From Candidatus Forterrea multitransposorum CG_2015-17_Forterrea_25_41 (GTDB lineage: Archaea; Iainarchaeota; Iainarchaeia; Iainarchaeales; CSSED10-239), in NCBI GenBank assembly GCA_009392915.1, contig CP045477.1, positions 448,001 through 512,000 of the forward strand: DNA of 64,000 nt, read 5' to 3'. Numbering within the stretch: the first letter of the stretch is position 1; the number at the start of each line of letters is the position of its first letter. Positions 8,511-46,197 of the stretch are shown here, in pieces. The notes beneath the pieces are model-generated. The model saw nothing but the letters and a program-made list of their open reading frames with translations. It was not told the origin of the DNA and did no database searches. The position numbers and the translations under genes are program-made.

Positions 8511-8776
8511 GTGTACAGGCACTTACTGGTCGAAAAACAGTTCAAGAAAACATTTAGCTTTATAAAATCTCAAGTCCGCAACCCAAAAAGCATCAAACAC
8601 TTAGGATACTGCTGCTTCCTTCCGGATCTGACAGGGTTTACTAAGATATTCGATCTTAATGGACGAACCGTCAGCAATTTTACAAAGAGTGCCTCCTTGC
8701 TTATTTGCCTTCCAGTAATAATCACTCCGGCTATGTAGATTTCCGGTAACAGGAGACTACAACCCCCCCAGCTAGC
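8511..8776 (-). ncRNA. ffs: signal recognition particle RNA (archaeal 7S-type)
   Basis: GC-rich island in AT-rich DNA; the minus strand carries the universal SRP helix-8 motif CUGUCAGAUCCGGAAGGAAGCAGCAG (compare E. coli 4.5S GUCAGGUCCGGAAGGAAGCAGC with a GGAA tetraloop); length about 270 nt fits archaeal 7S; the ends are approximate. Confidence 0.7.
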
Positions 8777-8884
8777 CTATACAAGTAATTAAAGTGACGA
8801 TACATTTAAAAACACTTTGGACAATATATATAACATAAAAATAATGTATTAATTCACTAAAAAACAAAAAAAGGTGTGTTAATA

Positions 8885-8936
8885 CCTTATATACAAAAAA
8901 GAAGCTTAATTTAAGCTTATTTTAATAATGAGGTGG
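8885..8936 (+). promoter_or_regulatory. ftsZ promoter region: TATA-like box (TTATATAC, 8887-8894), inverted repeat AAGCTTAA-T-TTAAGCTT (8902-8918), SD GAGGTGG (8930-8936)
   Basis: Read directly from the sequence upstream of ftsZ. Confidence 0.45.
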
Positions 8937-8941
8937 ATTGG

Positions 8942-10054
8942 ATGAGATCAATTGTATCAAATGCAGTAGAGCACAAATCTGCAGCTGCTGAGAACATAAA
9001 CGTTAAAGACAGCGAATTTGCAGCCCCAAAGATCATGGTTATGGGAATTGGTGGTGCAGGAAATAATTCTGTAAATAGAATCTGTGCAATGGGTGTTGCA
9101 GGTGCACAACTTGTAGCTATTAACACAGATAGACAACACTTAGGTATCATTTCAGATGATATAACAAAATTATTAATTGGAAAATCAGTAACTAATGGTT
9201 TAGGTGCTGGTGCATACCCTGAAATAGGTGCAAAAGCAGCAGAAGTTTCAAAAGCAGCATTAGAAGAAATCTTAGATGGTGTTGACATGCTTTTCATTAC
9301 TGCCGGAATGGGTGGTGGAACAGGAACAGGTGCAGCTCCAGTAGTAGCTCAAATAGCAAAACAACAAGGTGCAATTGTAATGTGTATAGTAACTTATCCT
9401 TTCGCACTTGAAAGAGCACGTTTAATTAAAGCAGAAGAAGGAATTGACCTTTTAAAAGATATTTGTGACACAGTTGTTGTTATTGATAACAATAGACTTG
9501 TTGAATTAGTTCCAAACCTTCCAATGCAAGATGCTTTCAGAGTAGCTGATGAAGTAATTGCAAGAACAGTAAGAGGAATTACAGAAACAATTACTCAACC
9601 TTCATTAATCAACCTTGATTACGCAGACATAAGAACAGTAATGGGTGGTAAAGGATTATCAGTTATCGCTGTTGGTGAATCACAATCTGTTAACAAAGTT
9701 GAAGAAGTTGTTGAAGACACATTAAAGAATGCTCTTTTAGATGTTGATATAACTGGTGCAACAGGTTGTTTAATCCATATTACAGGTGGAACTGAATTAA
9801 CTTTAGGTGAAGCTAACGCTGTTGGTGAAATGTTAACTGACCAAACAGATTCAAATGCAGCTGTTATCTGGGGTGCAAGAATTGATCCTACTTTTGAGAA
9901 TAAAATAGAAGTAATTGCTATTTTCACAGGTGTAAAATCACCATTCATCAAAGGAAGTAAAATGTTTAGAGGAAAAGATTCACCACAAAGCTACAACGGA
10001 AGTGGCAAAGGTGGAAGATCTTACGATGACAACTATGGATTAGATGTTTTATAA
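8942..10054 (+). CDS. ftsZ: cell division GTPase FtsZ (the track start 8933 is a GTG inside the SD; the ATG at 8942 is preferred)
   Basis: Tubulin/FtsZ signature GGGTGTG (MGGGTGTGAAPVVAQ) and an N-terminal GIGGAGNN motif; GC content clearly above the local average. Confidence 0.9.
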   Translation: MRSIVSNAVEHKSAAAENINVKDSEFAAPKIMVMGIGGAGNNSVNRICAMGVAGAQLVAINTDRQHLGIISDDITKLLIGKSVTNGLGAGAYPEIGAKAAEVSKAALEEILDGVDMLFITAGMGGGTGTGAAPVVAQIAKQQGAIVMCIVTYPFALERARLIKAEEGIDLLKDICDTVVVIDNNRLVELVPNLPMQDAFRVADEVIARTVRGITETITQPSLINLDYADIRTVMGGKGLSVIAVGESQSVNKVEEVVEDTLKNALLDVDITGATGCLIHITGGTELTLGEANAVGEMLTDQTDSNAAVIWGARIDPTFENKIEVIAIFTGVKSPFIKGSKMFRGKDSPQSYNGSGKGGRSYDDNYGLDVL

Positions 10055-28475: not shown

Positions 28476-28946
28476 TTAAATTTCATCTACAGAATAAACA
28501 AAATCTAAATCTATTTTATCATATGAGAATAATTCTTCATCTTTAAAAAATCTTGCAATTTCAATATCTGAAGAAACTTGTGAATCTGAAGCATGTACAA
28601 CATTACATTGCCCACTTAAAGAATAATCTCCTCTAATAGTTCCAGCTTCTGCTTCATAACCTTTTGTAACACCTACAAGATTTCTTACAACAGTAATAGC
28701 ATTTACACCTTCAATTACAAGTAAAACAGAAGGAGCACTTTGCATAAATCTTTTTAAATGAGGGAAAAAAGGCTTATCTTTTAAATGAAAATAATGTTCA
28801 CCTATTAAGTCATCATTTAAGTGCATCATTTTAAGTCCTACAAGTTTTAGTCCTTTTCTTTCAAATCTATGTAGGATTTCTCCAACAAGACCTCTATTTA
28901 ATGAATCTGGTTTAAAAATAACTAATGTTCGTTCCATATTTGACAC
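28476..28946 (-). CDS. ndk: nucleoside diphosphate kinase
   Basis: LVIFKPDS, GLVGEIL...ERKGLKLVG, active-site NVVHASDS; SD GAGGTG 7 nt upstream. Confidence 0.85.
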   Translation of the reverse strand: MSNMERTLVIFKPDSLNRGLVGEILHRFERKGLKLVGLKMMHLNDDLIGEHYFHLKDKPFFPHLKRFMQSAPSVLLVIEGVNAITVVRNLVGVTKGYEAEAGTIRGDYSLSGQCNVVHASDSQVSSDIEIARFFKDEELFSYDKIDLDFVYSVDEI

Positions 28947-28954
28947 CTCTAAAT

Positions 28955-30145
28955 TTATTTTCTTTCTAAAATGTATATGTATCTATTGATTTTTGAATCG
29001 TTTGCAGCTGCATAAAAAATAGGATTTTCAATTGAAATTTGGTTTGTAATTTTTGATGTATCTAAATAATCAAAACCATTATTTAAAAATACAGAATCAG
29101 AGACTTTTAATAATTGATTATCATATGTCTTAAGTTCTGGTAAGATACAAACAATTCTTGTTTTTGGTTTTAAATTACTATAAAGATTTCTAAATAAATC
29201 AGAATAAAGTTTATTTAAAGAATCAACTATACTTTTAGCTCTTAAAAAATTTGGTAATTTAGAGATAAAAGGACCCATGTATGGTTCAAAAACAACTCCG
29301 TCTACAGAAAAATTAAGTTTAGATGAATCACCATGAAGTACAGTAAAATCATTTGTATATTTAAAATAAGAAACAGCCCAGGCTAAATTTTTCTTAGAGC
29401 TTATAACTTTTTCTCTTTCTTTGTCAATTCCTAAAACATTATATCCTTTAGATAAACCTTCTATTAAAAAATTTCCAAAACCACAAAAAGGGTCTAAAAT
29501 TCTTTTTCCTTTTTTAAGACCTAAAATATTTATCATTATTTTAATAAGTCTAAAAGAAGTTGAATATAATTTTTCTTGTTCAGGTCTTAAAGTATCTTTT
29601 TTAATTATATCTTTAGGAGAATAACAAACAACTGCATATCCTAAATAATATTTATTATCAACTTTTGTAAAAAAGATTTCAAAACCTTTATCTAAAGAAT
29701 AAGAAAAATAATTATTAGGATTAATAATTGTGTTTTCTTTTTTATCTTTAAACTTTTTTGCTTTTTTTAAAACACCTTTAACTTTCTCTAGTTTAAATTG
29801 TTCTTTAAAAGATTGTTTTAAAAAATCAAGATCATCTTGAGAAATAAATTTATGTGAGATTCCATAATTAAATTTATTTGAATAATCTTTATCAAAAAAA
29901 TTTAAAAAATCACTAGATAGTTTATTAGAACTATAAAAGACTTTATAGATCCTTGTAGTTCCACCTAAATCATCTATGATTTTTGAAAAATCTACTTTTT
30001 GTTTAAAATCAAAAATAGCATAAGTATCTGTACTTGTAATATAAGAAAAGGAAATATTATTTAGTTTAAAATAAGAAAATACCTCAAGTATTGATAATTT
30101 ATAATCCCTTCCAAATAAAAATAAGTACATATATTTCAAACACAA
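28955..30145 (-). CDS. THUMP-domain RNA (guanine-N2) methyltransferase, Trm14/TrmN-like
   Basis: N-terminal THUMP-like region plus UPF0020 methylase motifs (ILDPFCGFGNFLIEG, VLGIDKE). Confidence 0.65.
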   Translation of the reverse strand: MCLKYMYLFLFGRDYKLSILEVFSYFKLNNISFSYITSTDTYAIFDFKQKVDFSKIIDDLGGTTRIYKVFYSSNKLSSDFLNFFDKDYSNKFNYGISHKFISQDDLDFLKQSFKEQFKLEKVKGVLKKAKKFKDKKENTIINPNNYFSYSLDKGFEIFFTKVDNKYYLGYAVVCYSPKDIIKKDTLRPEQEKLYSTSFRLIKIMINILGLKKGKRILDPFCGFGNFLIEGLSKGYNVLGIDKEREKVISSKKNLAWAVSYFKYTNDFTVLHGDSSKLNFSVDGVVFEPYMGPFISKLPNFLRAKSIVDSLNKLYSDLFRNLYSNLKPKTRIVCILPELKTYDNQLLKVSDSVFLNNGFDYLDTSKITNQISIENPIFYAAANDSKINRYIYILERK

Positions 30146-30190
30146 TTGTTTTTATTTTTTTTAAAAAAATGAAAAAATAAAAGAAGAAAA

Positions 30191-30919
30191 TTACTTCTTC
30201 TTTTTATCATCTTTTTTAGCAGCAGGAGCAGCTTTACCAGCTGGAGCTTTTGAATCTTTACCAGCAACAACTTTACCTTTTGCAGCTTTAAGTTCTTGAG
30301 CTTTTGCTTCTTCTGCTTTCTTTTCTTCTTCTGCCATAGCAGCAAGTTTTCTTCTCTTCTTTGTAGTTCCAACAGATTTTAAGTTGTCTTTATTTTCTTC
30401 AATTACAACTTTCATTCTACAAGGAAGTTTAGAATCAAGTCTTTCAAAGACTTTTTTTACAAATTCAACATTTGCTTCATCAACTAAAACACTAAATAAT
30501 TTTTGATTAGATTTAACTCTTGCAGCAACACCAACAACTTTTCCAAAAGGGCATTGACTCATACCTTGTTGAATTCTGTCGGCTTTAGCACCTTGAGCTT
30601 GTTTATTTTCTCTTAAGAAAAATTGAGGATATACTCTTAATTTCATATAGAAATTTTGAGCAGTTAATTTTTTATTTAAGTTTCTTACAACAGTTGTTCT
30701 TACAGATTCTAAAGCTGAATCTCTAATTTGTATTTTTTCAGAAGTTACATAATGAACTACATGAGAATATTGTTTTTCTCCAAAACCCATATGGTATTGT
30801 CTAACTTTAATACCTGGAGTTCCGCCTACATAGTTCTTTCTATGCACTCTTTTTGCAACTCTTGTATATGCTCTTTTATTTACTTTTGGATTATAACAAT
30901 GTCCTGGTCTAACACCCAT
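30191..30919 (-). CDS. rpl10e: 50S ribosomal protein L10e (uL16) with a roughly 65-aa Lys/Ala-rich C-terminal extension
   Basis: MGVRPGHCYNPKVNKRAYTRVAKRVHRKNYVGGTPGIKVRQYHMG is the L10e hallmark; TATA TTTATAAA and SD GGTGA upstream; tail ...AKAQELKAAKGKVVAGKDSKAPAGKAAPAAKKDDKKKK. Confidence 0.85.
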   Translation of the reverse strand: MGVRPGHCYNPKVNKRAYTRVAKRVHRKNYVGGTPGIKVRQYHMGFGEKQYSHVVHYVTSEKIQIRDSALESVRTTVVRNLNKKLTAQNFYMKLRVYPQFFLRENKQAQGAKADRIQQGMSQCPFGKVVGVAARVKSNQKLFSVLVDEANVEFVKKVFERLDSKLPCRMKVVIEENKDNLKSVGTTKKRRKLAAMAEEEKKAEEAKAQELKAAKGKVVAGKDSKAPAGKAAPAAKKDDKKKK

Positions 30920-31080
30920 AAATACTCACCTATAATTTTAAATTTTTTTATAAATTAACTCCTTTATTTTAAAGTTTTACTTAGTAACAAAGAAATTGTC
31001 TAATATAATATATATATAGAAAAGTATATAAAGTAATATTTTAGAAGTAAAAATAAGATTAAAACTTAATTAAATTGAAA

Positions 31081-31148
31081 GTAAGAACAGGGATCTGTTA
31101 TATAGGATAACAGTGTGCTCTTACCTTCTTCTTTCTGCCTTTTTTTTC
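31081..31148. terminator. nested inverted repeat (GTAAGA...CTGTTAT-N5-ATAACAG...TCTTAC) followed by a T8 run; terminator-like element or small structured RNA between the pilus operon and rpl10e
   Basis: Read from the sequence; strand assignment ambiguous. Confidence 0.3.
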
Positions 31149-31290
31149 TATTTGTGAAATTAGGTAATAGATTACCGTAAATATTATTGATAAAACTCTT
31201 TTTATAGGTATGGGGGTTGTAAAAAAAAACTAAAATAAGAAAAAAGTTTAGAAAACTAAACTCTTTTATGTTGAAGATAAATTAATAAAA

Positions 31291-45880: not shown

Positions 45881-45952
45881 CTATTTCTTTTTAGTTTTTT
45901 TTGCAGTCTCTTTAGCAGCTGGTTTTGCTTTAGCTTTAGCTTTTTGAGCCAT
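45881..45952 (-). CDS. 23-aa Lys/Ala-rich micro-ORF (MAQKAKAKAKPAAKETAKKTKKK) preceded by a strong SD AGGGGTGA
   Basis: Manual translation; SD 8 nt upstream; not in the ORF track. Confidence 0.25.
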   Translation of the reverse strand: MAQKAKAKAKPAAKETAKKTKKK

Positions 45953-46002
45953 TTTTTAGTTCACCCCTTTTTTTAAAGAATCAATTAAAACGTAATTCCA
46001 TT

Positions 46003-46197
46003 TTAATAGTCATCATCATCGTCGAAATCATCATCGTCTTCTTCTTCATAACTTGGTTTCTTTGGTGAAGGTTGTTTTTTAAAATCATTAAGATCTTCTT
46101 CAAAATCTTCATCAAATTCTTCCTCGTCAAAATCCTCATCATCGTAACTTTTTCCCATTGTAATAAATGATTTATTCATAATGACCATTTCCTCCAA
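46003..46197 (-). CDS. small hyper-acidic protein (D/E/F-rich; C-terminus DDDDFDDDDDY); the true start is probably the ATG at 46188 or 46179 after SD GGAGG
   Basis: The track start is a TTG; the downstream ATGs have a GGAGG SD. Confidence 0.4.
   Translation of the reverse strand: MEEMVIMNKSFITMGKSYDDEDFDEEEFDEDFEEDLNDFKKQPSPKKPSYEEEDDDDFDDDDDY

Follow-up and report, generated by a model that had tools for sequence, protein, structure and literature searches.

The Drosophila ribosomal proteins RpL22 and RpL23a carry N-terminal extensions rich in Ala, Lys, and Pro. In mosquitoes, RPS6 has a Lys/Ala/Glu-rich C-terminal tail that resembles linker histone H1. This tail stays on assembled ribosomes, and its likeness to H1 was judged to be convergent (PMC548281). 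Among bacteria of the Candidate Phyla Radiation (CPR), uS19 of Parcubacteria has an Ala/Lys-rich C-terminal region of ∼25 amino acids (PMC9297842). Here we describe a Lys/Ala-rich C-terminal tail on uL16 (L10e), a large-subunit protein, of the archaeon Candidatus Forterrea multitransposorum CG_2015-17_Forterrea_25_41. The gene lies in a 64,000-nucleotide stretch of contig CP045477.1 (positions 448,001 to 512,000; GC content ∼24%), which is called the window below and to which coordinates refer unless another locus is named. An earlier note on this DNA, made by reading its letters, had drawn attention to the tail.

uL16 is the last protein to complete the peptidyl-transferase/A-site region, and it borders the factor-binding center. 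It occupies the cleft between helices H38 and H89 of 23S rRNA, near the base of the P-stalk and eL40 (PMC6579518). In bacteria, C-terminal residues of uL16 contact bL25, a 5S-rRNA-binding protein that is absent from archaea (PMC4881015). We conclude that the archaeal tail is a lineage-specific disordered extension with unusually clear modular conservation, positioned beside a functional center of the large subunit. Our confidence that it is a real, selected, and lineage-defining ribosomal extension is high.

The window encodes uL16 with a long C-terminal extension

The complete uL16 gene spans 30191..30919 on the minus strand and, according to the list of open reading frames (ORFs) and its translation, consists of 242 codons and a TAA stop. 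A Shine-Dalgarno (SD)-like motif, GGTGA, can be read from the sequence 6 nucleotides (nt) 5′ of the ATG (30926..30930, minus strand), and it is of the same type as the SD that precedes a micro-ORF described below. The translation ends in ...KVVIEENKDNLKSVGTTKKRRKLAAMAEEEKKAEEAKAQELKAAKGKVVAGKDSKAPAGKAAPAAKKDDKKKK followed by the stop.

The protein belongs to the uL16/L10e family (Pfam PF00252, TIGR00279), as the earlier note had proposed. Pfam Ribosomal_L16 (PF00252) covers residues 24–172 with E = 1.3e-22 and a score of 80.6 bits against a cutoff of 27.9, which is a whole-domain family match, and NF003239 scores 165 bits against a cutoff of 91. The NCBIfam equivalogs for archaeal uL16, which have 172–181 positions, stop at residues 178–181 (best E = 7.9e-49). 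The remaining NCBIfam sub-models fall under their own narrow cutoffs, as would be expected for a divergent DPANN sequence. The alpha/beta fold of uL16 is recovered by AlphaFold2, with a predicted local distance difference test (pLDDT) score of 82–93 for the core over most blocks of residues 41–170. The best Foldseek matches are the uL16 chains of M. acetivorans, P. furiosus, H. marismortui, and T. kodakarensis (E down to 5e-17), and the top matches to the core include both archaeal and eukaryotic uL16. Profile ends, PDB alignment, Foldseek, and hhalign place the globular core at residues 1–180 (30380..30919, minus strand).

All solved archaeal uL16 chains in the PDB are 164–182 amino acids long, and their matches end at or before query residue 178. 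Because profiles and PDB chains both end near residue 180, ∼61–65 residues of the window protein are extra. This bears out the tail of ∼65 residues that the earlier note had described, and the sequence that it quoted is exact. The tail-coding DNA (30194..30379, minus strand) and the stop codon (30191..30193) lie within the interval it had given, 30191–30400.

The extension is genuine and under selection

In principle, a false extension could arise from a missed stop codon or from a frameshift introduced by sequencing or assembly, and the earlier note had named a frameshift or read error as one finding that would refute its claim. The one argument for such an artifact is the prior expectation of errors in A-rich DNA of low complexity. 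Of 90 homologues obtained by searching 5.8 billion proteins, 87 have a tail. The frame and the stop context (...KKK followed by the stop) are shared by dozens of independent assemblies from NCBI, JGI, ENA, and Logan. Full-length tailed homologues are 216–276 amino acids long, and their source labels read Candidatus Iainarchaeum or Diapherotrites. Moreover, the ORF in the alternative frame (30136..30372) is Leu/Lys-rich and unlike any uL16 tail.

Substitutions in the tail are mostly synonymous. The ratio of nonsynonymous to synonymous substitution rates (dN/dS) was compared at the codon level among species that are 72%–90% identical, with dS of ∼0.6–1.0. Loci from the Genome Taxonomy Database (GTDB) are numbered L001–L080 here, and homologues from the protein database search carry P-numbers. 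For the window versus L002, dN/dS is 0.10 in the tail and 0.08 in the core; the corresponding values are 0.24 and 0.21 for the window versus L003, 0.18 and 0.18 for L002 versus L003, and 0.14 and 0.16 for L006 versus L007. Tails in this set are 55, 57, 59, and 62 residues long and differ by whole codons. The low dN/dS values and the whole-codon insertions and deletions indicate that the tail is translated in the uL16 frame. Among close relatives, the tail is as constrained as the globular domain. The many independent assemblies that keep the frame, the indels in multiples of three, and the low dN/dS refute a frameshift or assembly artifact, to which we assign virtually no chance.

The composition of the tail stands out within the window. 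Ala makes up 24% of the tail and 3.5% of the other 48 long ORFs of the window, a sevenfold difference, and Lys makes up 31% versus 10.8%. Asp and Glu together account for 15% of the tail. Ile, Asn, and Phe are absent from it, although they are abundant elsewhere in the window, and the most Ala-rich 60-amino-acid stretch in the window is the uL16 tail. The GC content at third codon positions (GC3) is 0.11 in the tail, equal to that of the core. Across 48 species, tail Ala content is unrelated to genome GC content (rho = −0.06), and tails with 34%–46% Ala are found in genomes of 26%–28% GC. This lack of relationship indicates that selection, and not drift with mutation bias, sets the composition. 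An origin of the composition in mutational bias was ruled out because Ala is raised sevenfold at unchanged GC3 and does not correlate with genome GC content.

A genome-wide habit of adding Lys/Ala tails was likewise ruled out. Within the window, uL16 is the only ORF that ends in such a tail. In 291 kb of Iainarchaeota loci, 46 of 305 ORFs have a terminus of this kind, and 45 of these 46 are uL16. Among the ORFs of these loci, the trait is specific to uL16.

The tail is found throughout the Iainarchaeota

The window uL16 is 99% identical to P0001/L001, labeled ‘Candidatus (I)ainarchaeum sp.’ The closest GTDB genome is ‘Candidatus ainarchaeum sp. STF1_257’, whose lineage is Archaea; Nanobdellati (DPANN); Iainarchaeota. 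The distribution of the tail was established by scanning one GTDB genome per species, keeping the 80 best loci, and extending each match to the stop codon. The 50 best loci, at 40%–99% identity, are all from metagenome-assembled genomes (MAGs) of Iainarchaeota type, and every one carries the extension. Of these genes, 48 are complete, and in them the tail beyond the S-[VIL]-G-T junction described below is 47–92 residues long (median 66); each of the remaining two runs off the end of its contig after the tail has started. The comparison with related archaea that the earlier note had recommended thus finds the tail in 50 of 50 Iainarchaeota species.

Outside this group, 24 of the next 30 loci have only 0–8 extra residues, and these come from Woesearchaeota, Pacearchaeota, Nanoarchaeota, Methanospirillum, Methanosarcinales, Thermoplasmata, and Archaeoglobaceae. 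Woese-, Pace-, and Nanoarchaeota lack similar tails, as do cultured archaea. The exceptions among the 30 are L056, with an acidic tail of 52 residues; L060, L061, and L079, with Ala-rich tails of 16–18 residues; and L076 and L080, of Thermoplasmatota type, with Ala/Lys/Glu/Gly tails of 79–81 residues that end in KKK or GGKK. A phmmer search with the core only, which is unbiased by tail words, was made against 1.84 billion cluster representatives. It revealed many more divergent archaeal uL16 proteins with low-complexity tails of 50–90 residues, often ending in Lys clusters and in other cases acidic; named carriers include Candidatus Micrarchaeota, Candidatus Thermoplasmatota, and mine-drainage archaea. 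The tail is therefore a character of Iainarchaeota as a whole phylum, and it recurs in a few other uncultivated lineages.

The earlier note had allowed that the tail might prove to be common and already described in this lineage. It is common, but in the searchable literature, outside of which most subscription-journal papers lie, we found no description of a uL16 tail for Iainarchaeota, Diapherotrites, or DPANN archaea. We provisionally regard it as undescribed so far.

Several other features of uL16 were encountered among these loci. L076 (JAJPHT010000026.1) is labeled as a ‘Proteobacteria bacterium’ MAG and encodes an archaeal uL16 whose 80-residue tail is nearly identical in design to that of the Thermoplasmatota MAG L080; this is probably a misbinned archaeal contig. 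The tails of L076 and L080 both contain ...VVAIGSTGE..., which is reminiscent of the S-[VIL]-G-T junction. A more distant Iainarchaeota clade (P0075–P0086, L036–L050) has a second lineage-specific addition to uL16, a basic insertion of ∼14–17 residues near the N-terminus, for example GKRLRIGAGGHSRVAKK. This insertion (alignment A1 columns 14–30) is absent from the window protein.

The tail is built of modules with different conservation

Conservation per position was determined in an alignment of 44 sequences from the clade of the window, and a wider set of 82 sequences was also used. The first module is a junction at residues 181–192 (30344..30379, minus strand), with the pattern KSVGT-T-KKRRK-L, in which S-[VIL]-G-T is followed by a basic patch of the type found in nuclear localization signals (NLS). 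Mean identity across this junction (KSVGTTKKRRKL) is 0.83 in the 44 sequences, compared with 0.74 in the core. Positions G184 and T185 are invariant and positions 187–191 are basic in at least 93% of these sequences. Across the wider set, S182, G184, T185, and K240 are nearly invariant.

The junction runs into a charged Glu/Lys/Ala segment at residues 188–214 (30278..30358, minus strand), which is predicted to form a single alpha-helix. AlphaFold2, given the 82-sequence alignment, places a helix at 188–214. Set beside single alpha-helix (ER/K) spacers, which are long, isolated, and charge-patterned and need no tertiary contacts to be stable, the segment, AEEEKKAEEAKAQELKAAK, contains Glu-Lys pairs spaced i/i+4, but its pLDDT is only ∼70 and it is not conserved in distant members. 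Within the clade of the window, identity falls to 0.36–0.40 over residues 193–214. The distal tail that follows (residues 215–242; 30194..30277, minus strand) is rich in Lys, Ala, and Pro and is predicted to be disordered, with AlphaFold2 pLDDT values of 32–47 and no secondary structure. These last 28 residues comprise 36% Lys, 25% Ala, 7% Pro, and 11% Asp. Residues 215–234 show an identity of 0.27, many gaps, and frequent in-frame indels.

The protein ends in a terminal lysine cluster, KKKK (residues 239–242; 30194..30205, minus strand), encoded by AAA AAG AAG AAG. K240 and K241 are conserved in 86%–91% of the 44 sequences. A KK end is present on 34 of 39 Iainarchaeota uL16 proteins (87%) versus 15 of 225 other ORFs in the same loci (7%; Fisher p = 8e-26), and composition alone would predict ∼5%.

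The variable part of the tail bears traces of repeat expansion in relatives. In L004 (781–870 of that locus), it contains five 100%-identical 18-nt units that encode KDAKNT, and in L007 (3600–3756) it contains in-frame tandem repeats with units of 21–63 nt. No DNA repeat was seen when the window's own tail was inspected. The perfect tandem units in L004 indicate that slippage-driven length change is ongoing in the variable part.

Charge and composition vary among tails

The net charge of the tail ranges from −12 to +14 among database homologues and from −7 to +12 among the 48 GTDB species (median +4). Only the low-GC sub-clade L001–L008, which includes the window, has strongly basic tails (+10 to +12). 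Given the range of −12 to +14, strong basicity is a trait of this sub-clade and not of the whole feature. Composition also switches by lineage, from Ala/Gly/Pro-rich to Glu/Lys-rich to Thr/Asp/Lys-rich, and hydrophobic residues make up ∼7% of the tails of the GTDB species. The conserved properties are the basic junction motif, hydrophilicity and disorder, a length of ∼50–90 residues, and the terminal Lys-Lys. Its low complexity, predicted disorder, conserved presence, and purifying selection mark the tail as an intrinsically disordered, lineage-specific ribosomal-protein extension.

One alternative reading of this variability is that the exposed C-terminus tolerates low-complexity growth, in which slippage adds hydrophilic repeats and selection keeps them harmless, that is, soluble and disordered. 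The tail would then act at most as an entropic bristle that limits ribosome aggregation. Such growth would account for the recent tandem repeats that make up the mid-tail of L004 and L007; for the wide differences in composition, charge (−12 to +14), and length (47–92 residues); and for the acidic or Ala-rich uL16 tails of different makeup in other archaeal lineages. However, no tail has been lost in 50 species that span 40%–99% core identity, and tail dN/dS is as low as that of the core among close relatives. In addition, the junction is conserved above the level of the core, the terminal KK is specifically conserved, and the enrichment in Ala opposes the mutational bias of 24%–26% GC. We consider tolerated growth to be a possible but unlikely explanation.

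The basic charge of the window's sub-clade bears on another proposal, made in the earlier note, that uL16 moonlights as a nucleoid protein. Free or ribosome-bound uL16 would bind or compact DNA through an H1-like tail. Its distal 28 residues are rich in Lys, Ala, and Pro, as is the C-terminal domain of H1, the tails of the sub-clade carry net charges of +10 to +12, and a gene for a free Lys/Ala peptide of 23 amino acids is present in the same genomes. Yet most tails in the family are weakly charged or acidic, and Pfam and NCBIfam reveal neither a linker-histone domain nor any other DNA-binding domain, and there is no S/TPKK motif. Furthermore, the tail is fused to an essential, stoichiometric component of the ribosome whose core is buried between H38 and H89, and the mosquito RPS6 tail, with its convergent resemblance to H1, stays on the ribosome. 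We found nothing that supports a nucleoid function, and we regard it as very improbable.

A possible role on the ribosome

The analyses above show that the tail is real, conserved, and under selection, and they establish its modular build and its distribution among lineages. By homology, the tailed uL16 is expected to be incorporated into the 50S subunit between H38 and H89 (PMC6579518). In solved archaeal ribosomes, basic motifs of the NLS type in ribosomal proteins bind helical junctions of the rRNA (10.1101/671966). We propose that the tail is a ribosome-bound extension with an rRNA-docked base, a helical spacer, and a flexible KK tip on the A-site/factor side, and we give this reading a probability of about 0.5. 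The K-S-[VIL]-G-T junction and its five Lys/Arg residues would most likely dock on 23S/5S rRNA beside the uL16 core, and the charged helix of ∼27 residues would serve as a spacer. The flexible remainder would project from the A-site/factor side of the large subunit; its low-complexity stretch would be free to vary and would evolve by in-frame slippage of short repeats. The terminal Lys-Lys(-Lys) could then engage rRNA or incoming tRNA in short-lived electrostatic contacts. The place of the tail on the ribosome and the contacts of its tip are inferred, and we hold the specific mechanism of docking and a tentacle with moderate to low confidence.

Several observations weigh against this proposal. 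We know of no ribosome structure from an ultra-small DPANN archaeon, and all archaeal ribosomes that have been solved contain a tail-less uL16. The direction in which the archaeal C-terminus would point is taken from the bacterial contacts. Confidence in the helix is moderate, and the distant clade reads LPSKAIEEKVVEV in this segment. When the 56-residue tail alone was searched against 5.8 billion proteins, 16 word candidates were obtained and none had E ≤ 10. Finally, basic charge is consistent across the family at the junction and the tip only. Many tails are neutral or net-negative, down to −12, and therefore bulk electrostatic binding of RNA is not the conserved function of the middle part.

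The pattern of a conserved tip on a variable spacer would also be expected if the tail were a tethered ligand that offers its terminal lysines to one particular partner in the factor-binding center, as a basic counterpart of the acidic stalk. The partner might be the aP1 stalk proteins, through their acidic C-terminal tails, or else a GTPase of translation, a factor for hibernation or assembly, or the tRNA elbow. This reading gains from the fact that uL16 adjoins the base of the P-stalk (PMC6579518) and from the KK or KKK ends, which have been gained or kept on unrelated spacers in Iainarchaeota, Micrarchaeota, and Thermoplasmatota. However, a tip of two or three lysines is a motif of very low information, and the partner is only hypothetical. 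Lys is also common near C-termini in AT-rich genomes, and 43 of the 225 other ORFs have Lys or Arg at two of their last three positions. We judge a tethered ligand to be quite doubtful and favor the rRNA-docked extension.

A conserved Lys/Ala-rich micro-ORF and other features of the window

The micro-ORF that the earlier note had reported, with a strong SD, is present as stated. It encodes a 23-residue Lys/Ala peptide, MAQKAKAKAKPAAKETAKKTKKK, at 45881..45952 on the minus strand, with a GGGGTGA SD 8 nt upstream (45961..45967). Equivalents of 22–24 residues, with the same SD and AAAGGGGTGAAA context, occur in three other Iainarchaeota species: MVVKKKAAKKPAAKKTVKKKKK in L005 (position 5810, plus strand), MVAKKKPAAKKTTAKPKAKAKKK in L006 (5744, plus), and MVAKKKVAKKAPAKKAPAKKTKKK in L007 (5839, plus). 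These three lie ∼2.1 kb downstream from the end of uL16, after genes for a methyltransferase and nucleoside diphosphate kinase (NDK). In the window, the micro-ORF is displaced ∼15 kb from uL16. The peptides end in KKK.

In 160 loci, a stricter filter for Lys/Ala composition yielded no further micro-ORF, and the few further matches of a looser, SD-anchored filter are unrelated Arg-rich peptides. None was found beside homologues of aspartyl-tRNA synthetase (AspRS) in 80 metagenome loci, up to 65% identity. The four peptides match no Pfam or NCBIfam family. When the tail, the micro-ORF peptides, and an acidic ORF nearby were compared with Pfam and NCBIfam, the only near-miss was a compositional one to the mycobacterial Rv3852 family (E = 0.08). 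The micro-ORF looks like a real, conserved micro-protein gene, perhaps unannotated. The peptide is similar in sequence to the tip of the uL16 tail, a relation that appears to be compositional only, and a functional link between the two would be speculation.

A bolder reading makes use of this peptide. The tail would form a ‘basic stalk’, a flexible, KK-tipped tentacle beside the acidic P-stalk, and would catch ligands of negative charge where the A site is entered; the peptide of 22–24 residues would be this module in soluble form. Candidate ligands are tRNA, the aEF1A ternary complex, acidic stalk tails, and an assembly or hibernation factor, and the free peptide would be a candidate for, as one example, a previously unrecognized ribosome-associated micro-protein. 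If this is true, Iainarchaeota, Micrarchaeota, and some Thermoplasmatota would have in common a new accessory part of the translation machinery. We offer it as a long shot.

Directly upstream of the micro-ORF, on the same strand, is an extremely acidic ORF of 64 amino acids (46003–46197, minus strand; ...DDEDFDEEEFDEDFEED...EEEDDDDFDDDDDY), which has no match in Pfam or NCBIfam. This neighborhood of small acidic and basic genes may or may not be meaningful.

The order uL16, RMKL/UPF0020-like methyltransferase of ∼396 amino acids, and NDK is kept between the window (28476–30919, minus strand) and L007 (3001–5549, plus strand), whose uL16 is ∼70% identical to that of the window. The intergenic region of 370 nt 5′ of uL16 is extremely AT-rich except for a locally GC-richer patch (...ggcagaaagaagaaggtaagagcacactgttatcc...) at 31100–31200 on the minus strand, and it has no Rfam match at the gathering threshold.

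The earlier note had also suggested that the tail may be an rRNA-binding extension that makes up for lost expansion segments of the rRNA. A search for rRNA genes in the window found none; its RNA genes are a signal recognition particle (SRP) RNA and four tRNAs (Leu-CAA, Ser-GCT, Asp-GTC, and Arg-CCT). The archaeal SRP RNA (8512–8783, minus strand) scores 118 bits. An ORF that overlaps it on the opposite strand (8511..8738) is probably spurious. A long ORF (8933..10054) adjoins the SRP RNA, and both lie in a GC-richer stretch at 8–12 kb.

Implications

A selected, phylum-wide appendage of 50–90 residues at the factor-binding center would be a real structural specialization of ribosomes in ultra-small DPANN archaea. 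For Iainarchaeota, the K-S-[VIL]-G-T junction, the low-complexity tail, and the KK end offer a synapomorphy that can be scored, and similar tails would have been gained recurrently in Micrarchaeota and Thermoplasmatota. Phylogenies built on concatenated ribosomal proteins routinely include uL16 as a marker, so these tails need to be trimmed. Metaproteomics based on trypsin will overlook them. With this tail, the H1-like tails of insect ribosomal proteins, long unexplained, and the Ala/Lys tail of CPR uS19 gain a counterpart among prokaryotes. This hints at a common pressure behind such tails in reduced-genome symbionts.

Comparison with known extensions and tails

Eukaryotic uL16 (RPL10) also has a C-terminal extension, and it begins at the same site, after the last core beta-strand. 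Its start, K-W-G-F-T, is superficially similar to K-S-V-G-T. However, the eukaryotic extension (∼45 amino acids, starting ...SRKWGFTKF) is not of low complexity and has no KK end. Homology between the two extensions was rejected, since hhalign between 82 Iainarchaeota-type and six eukaryotic sequences ends at the last core strand. The alignment covers query residues 1–176 (profile columns 3–178), and Foldseek alignments that run past the core toward the extension are poor (root-mean-square deviation of 7–8 Å).

The C-terminal domain of linker histone H1 is about 40% Lys, has almost no acidic residues, and contains S/TPKK-type motifs. The distal 28 residues of the uL16 tail share its disordered Lys/Ala/Pro-rich composition. 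Unlike H1, the uL16 tail lacks a winged-helix domain and S/TPKK motifs, is 11%–15% acidic, and has a mixed-charge helix predicted in its first half. Pfam finds nothing but Ribosomal_L16 in the whole protein, with no match to Linker_histone, and the isolated tail has no Pfam match at E up to 10 and no NCBIfam family. Identity as a linker histone was rejected on the grounds that there is no globular domain or S/TPKK motif, acidic residues are present, and charge is not conserved in the family. The H1 likeness drawn in the earlier note thus holds for the last ∼28 residues in this sub-clade, but does not extend to the first half of the tail or to a family whose charge runs from −12 to +14.

The KKRRK of the junction is a monopartite NLS-like cluster within an extension, as are the NLS-type motifs of archaeal uL3, uL15, uL18, and uS12 (10.1101/671966). 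However, uL16 is not among the proteins in that work, and KKRRK is specific to Iainarchaeota and forms the base of a long disordered tail. 

The stalk proteins aP1, P1, and P2 have a variable hinge rich in Ala, Glu, Lys, Gly, and Pro and a short conserved C-terminal motif, on the factor-binding side. The likeness to them, a variable hinge that ends in a conserved tip, is an analogy of design only: The tip of the stalk is acidic and hydrophobic and binds GTPases, whereas that of uL16 is oligo-lysine.

The closest analogues in kind are the tails of mosquito RPS6 and parcubacterial uS19 introduced at the outset. Like the uL16 tail, that of mosquito RPS6 is a lineage-specific, Lys/Ala/Glu-rich C-terminal addition to an ordinary ribosomal protein and diverges much faster than the core. 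It differs in that it belongs to the small subunit of eukaryotic insects, is 100–170 residues long, and has no reported junction motif or terminal KK. The uL16 tail is archaeal, lies beside the A site, and is conserved at the level of a phylum. Parcubacterial uS19 is likewise a universal ribosomal protein extended at the C-terminus by an Ala/Lys-rich stretch, which is specific to an ultra-small, reduced-genome, and probably symbiotic lineage. In contrast, uS19 is a different protein of the bacterial small subunit, and its addition is ∼25 residues long compared with the 47–92 residues of the Iainarchaeota tails.

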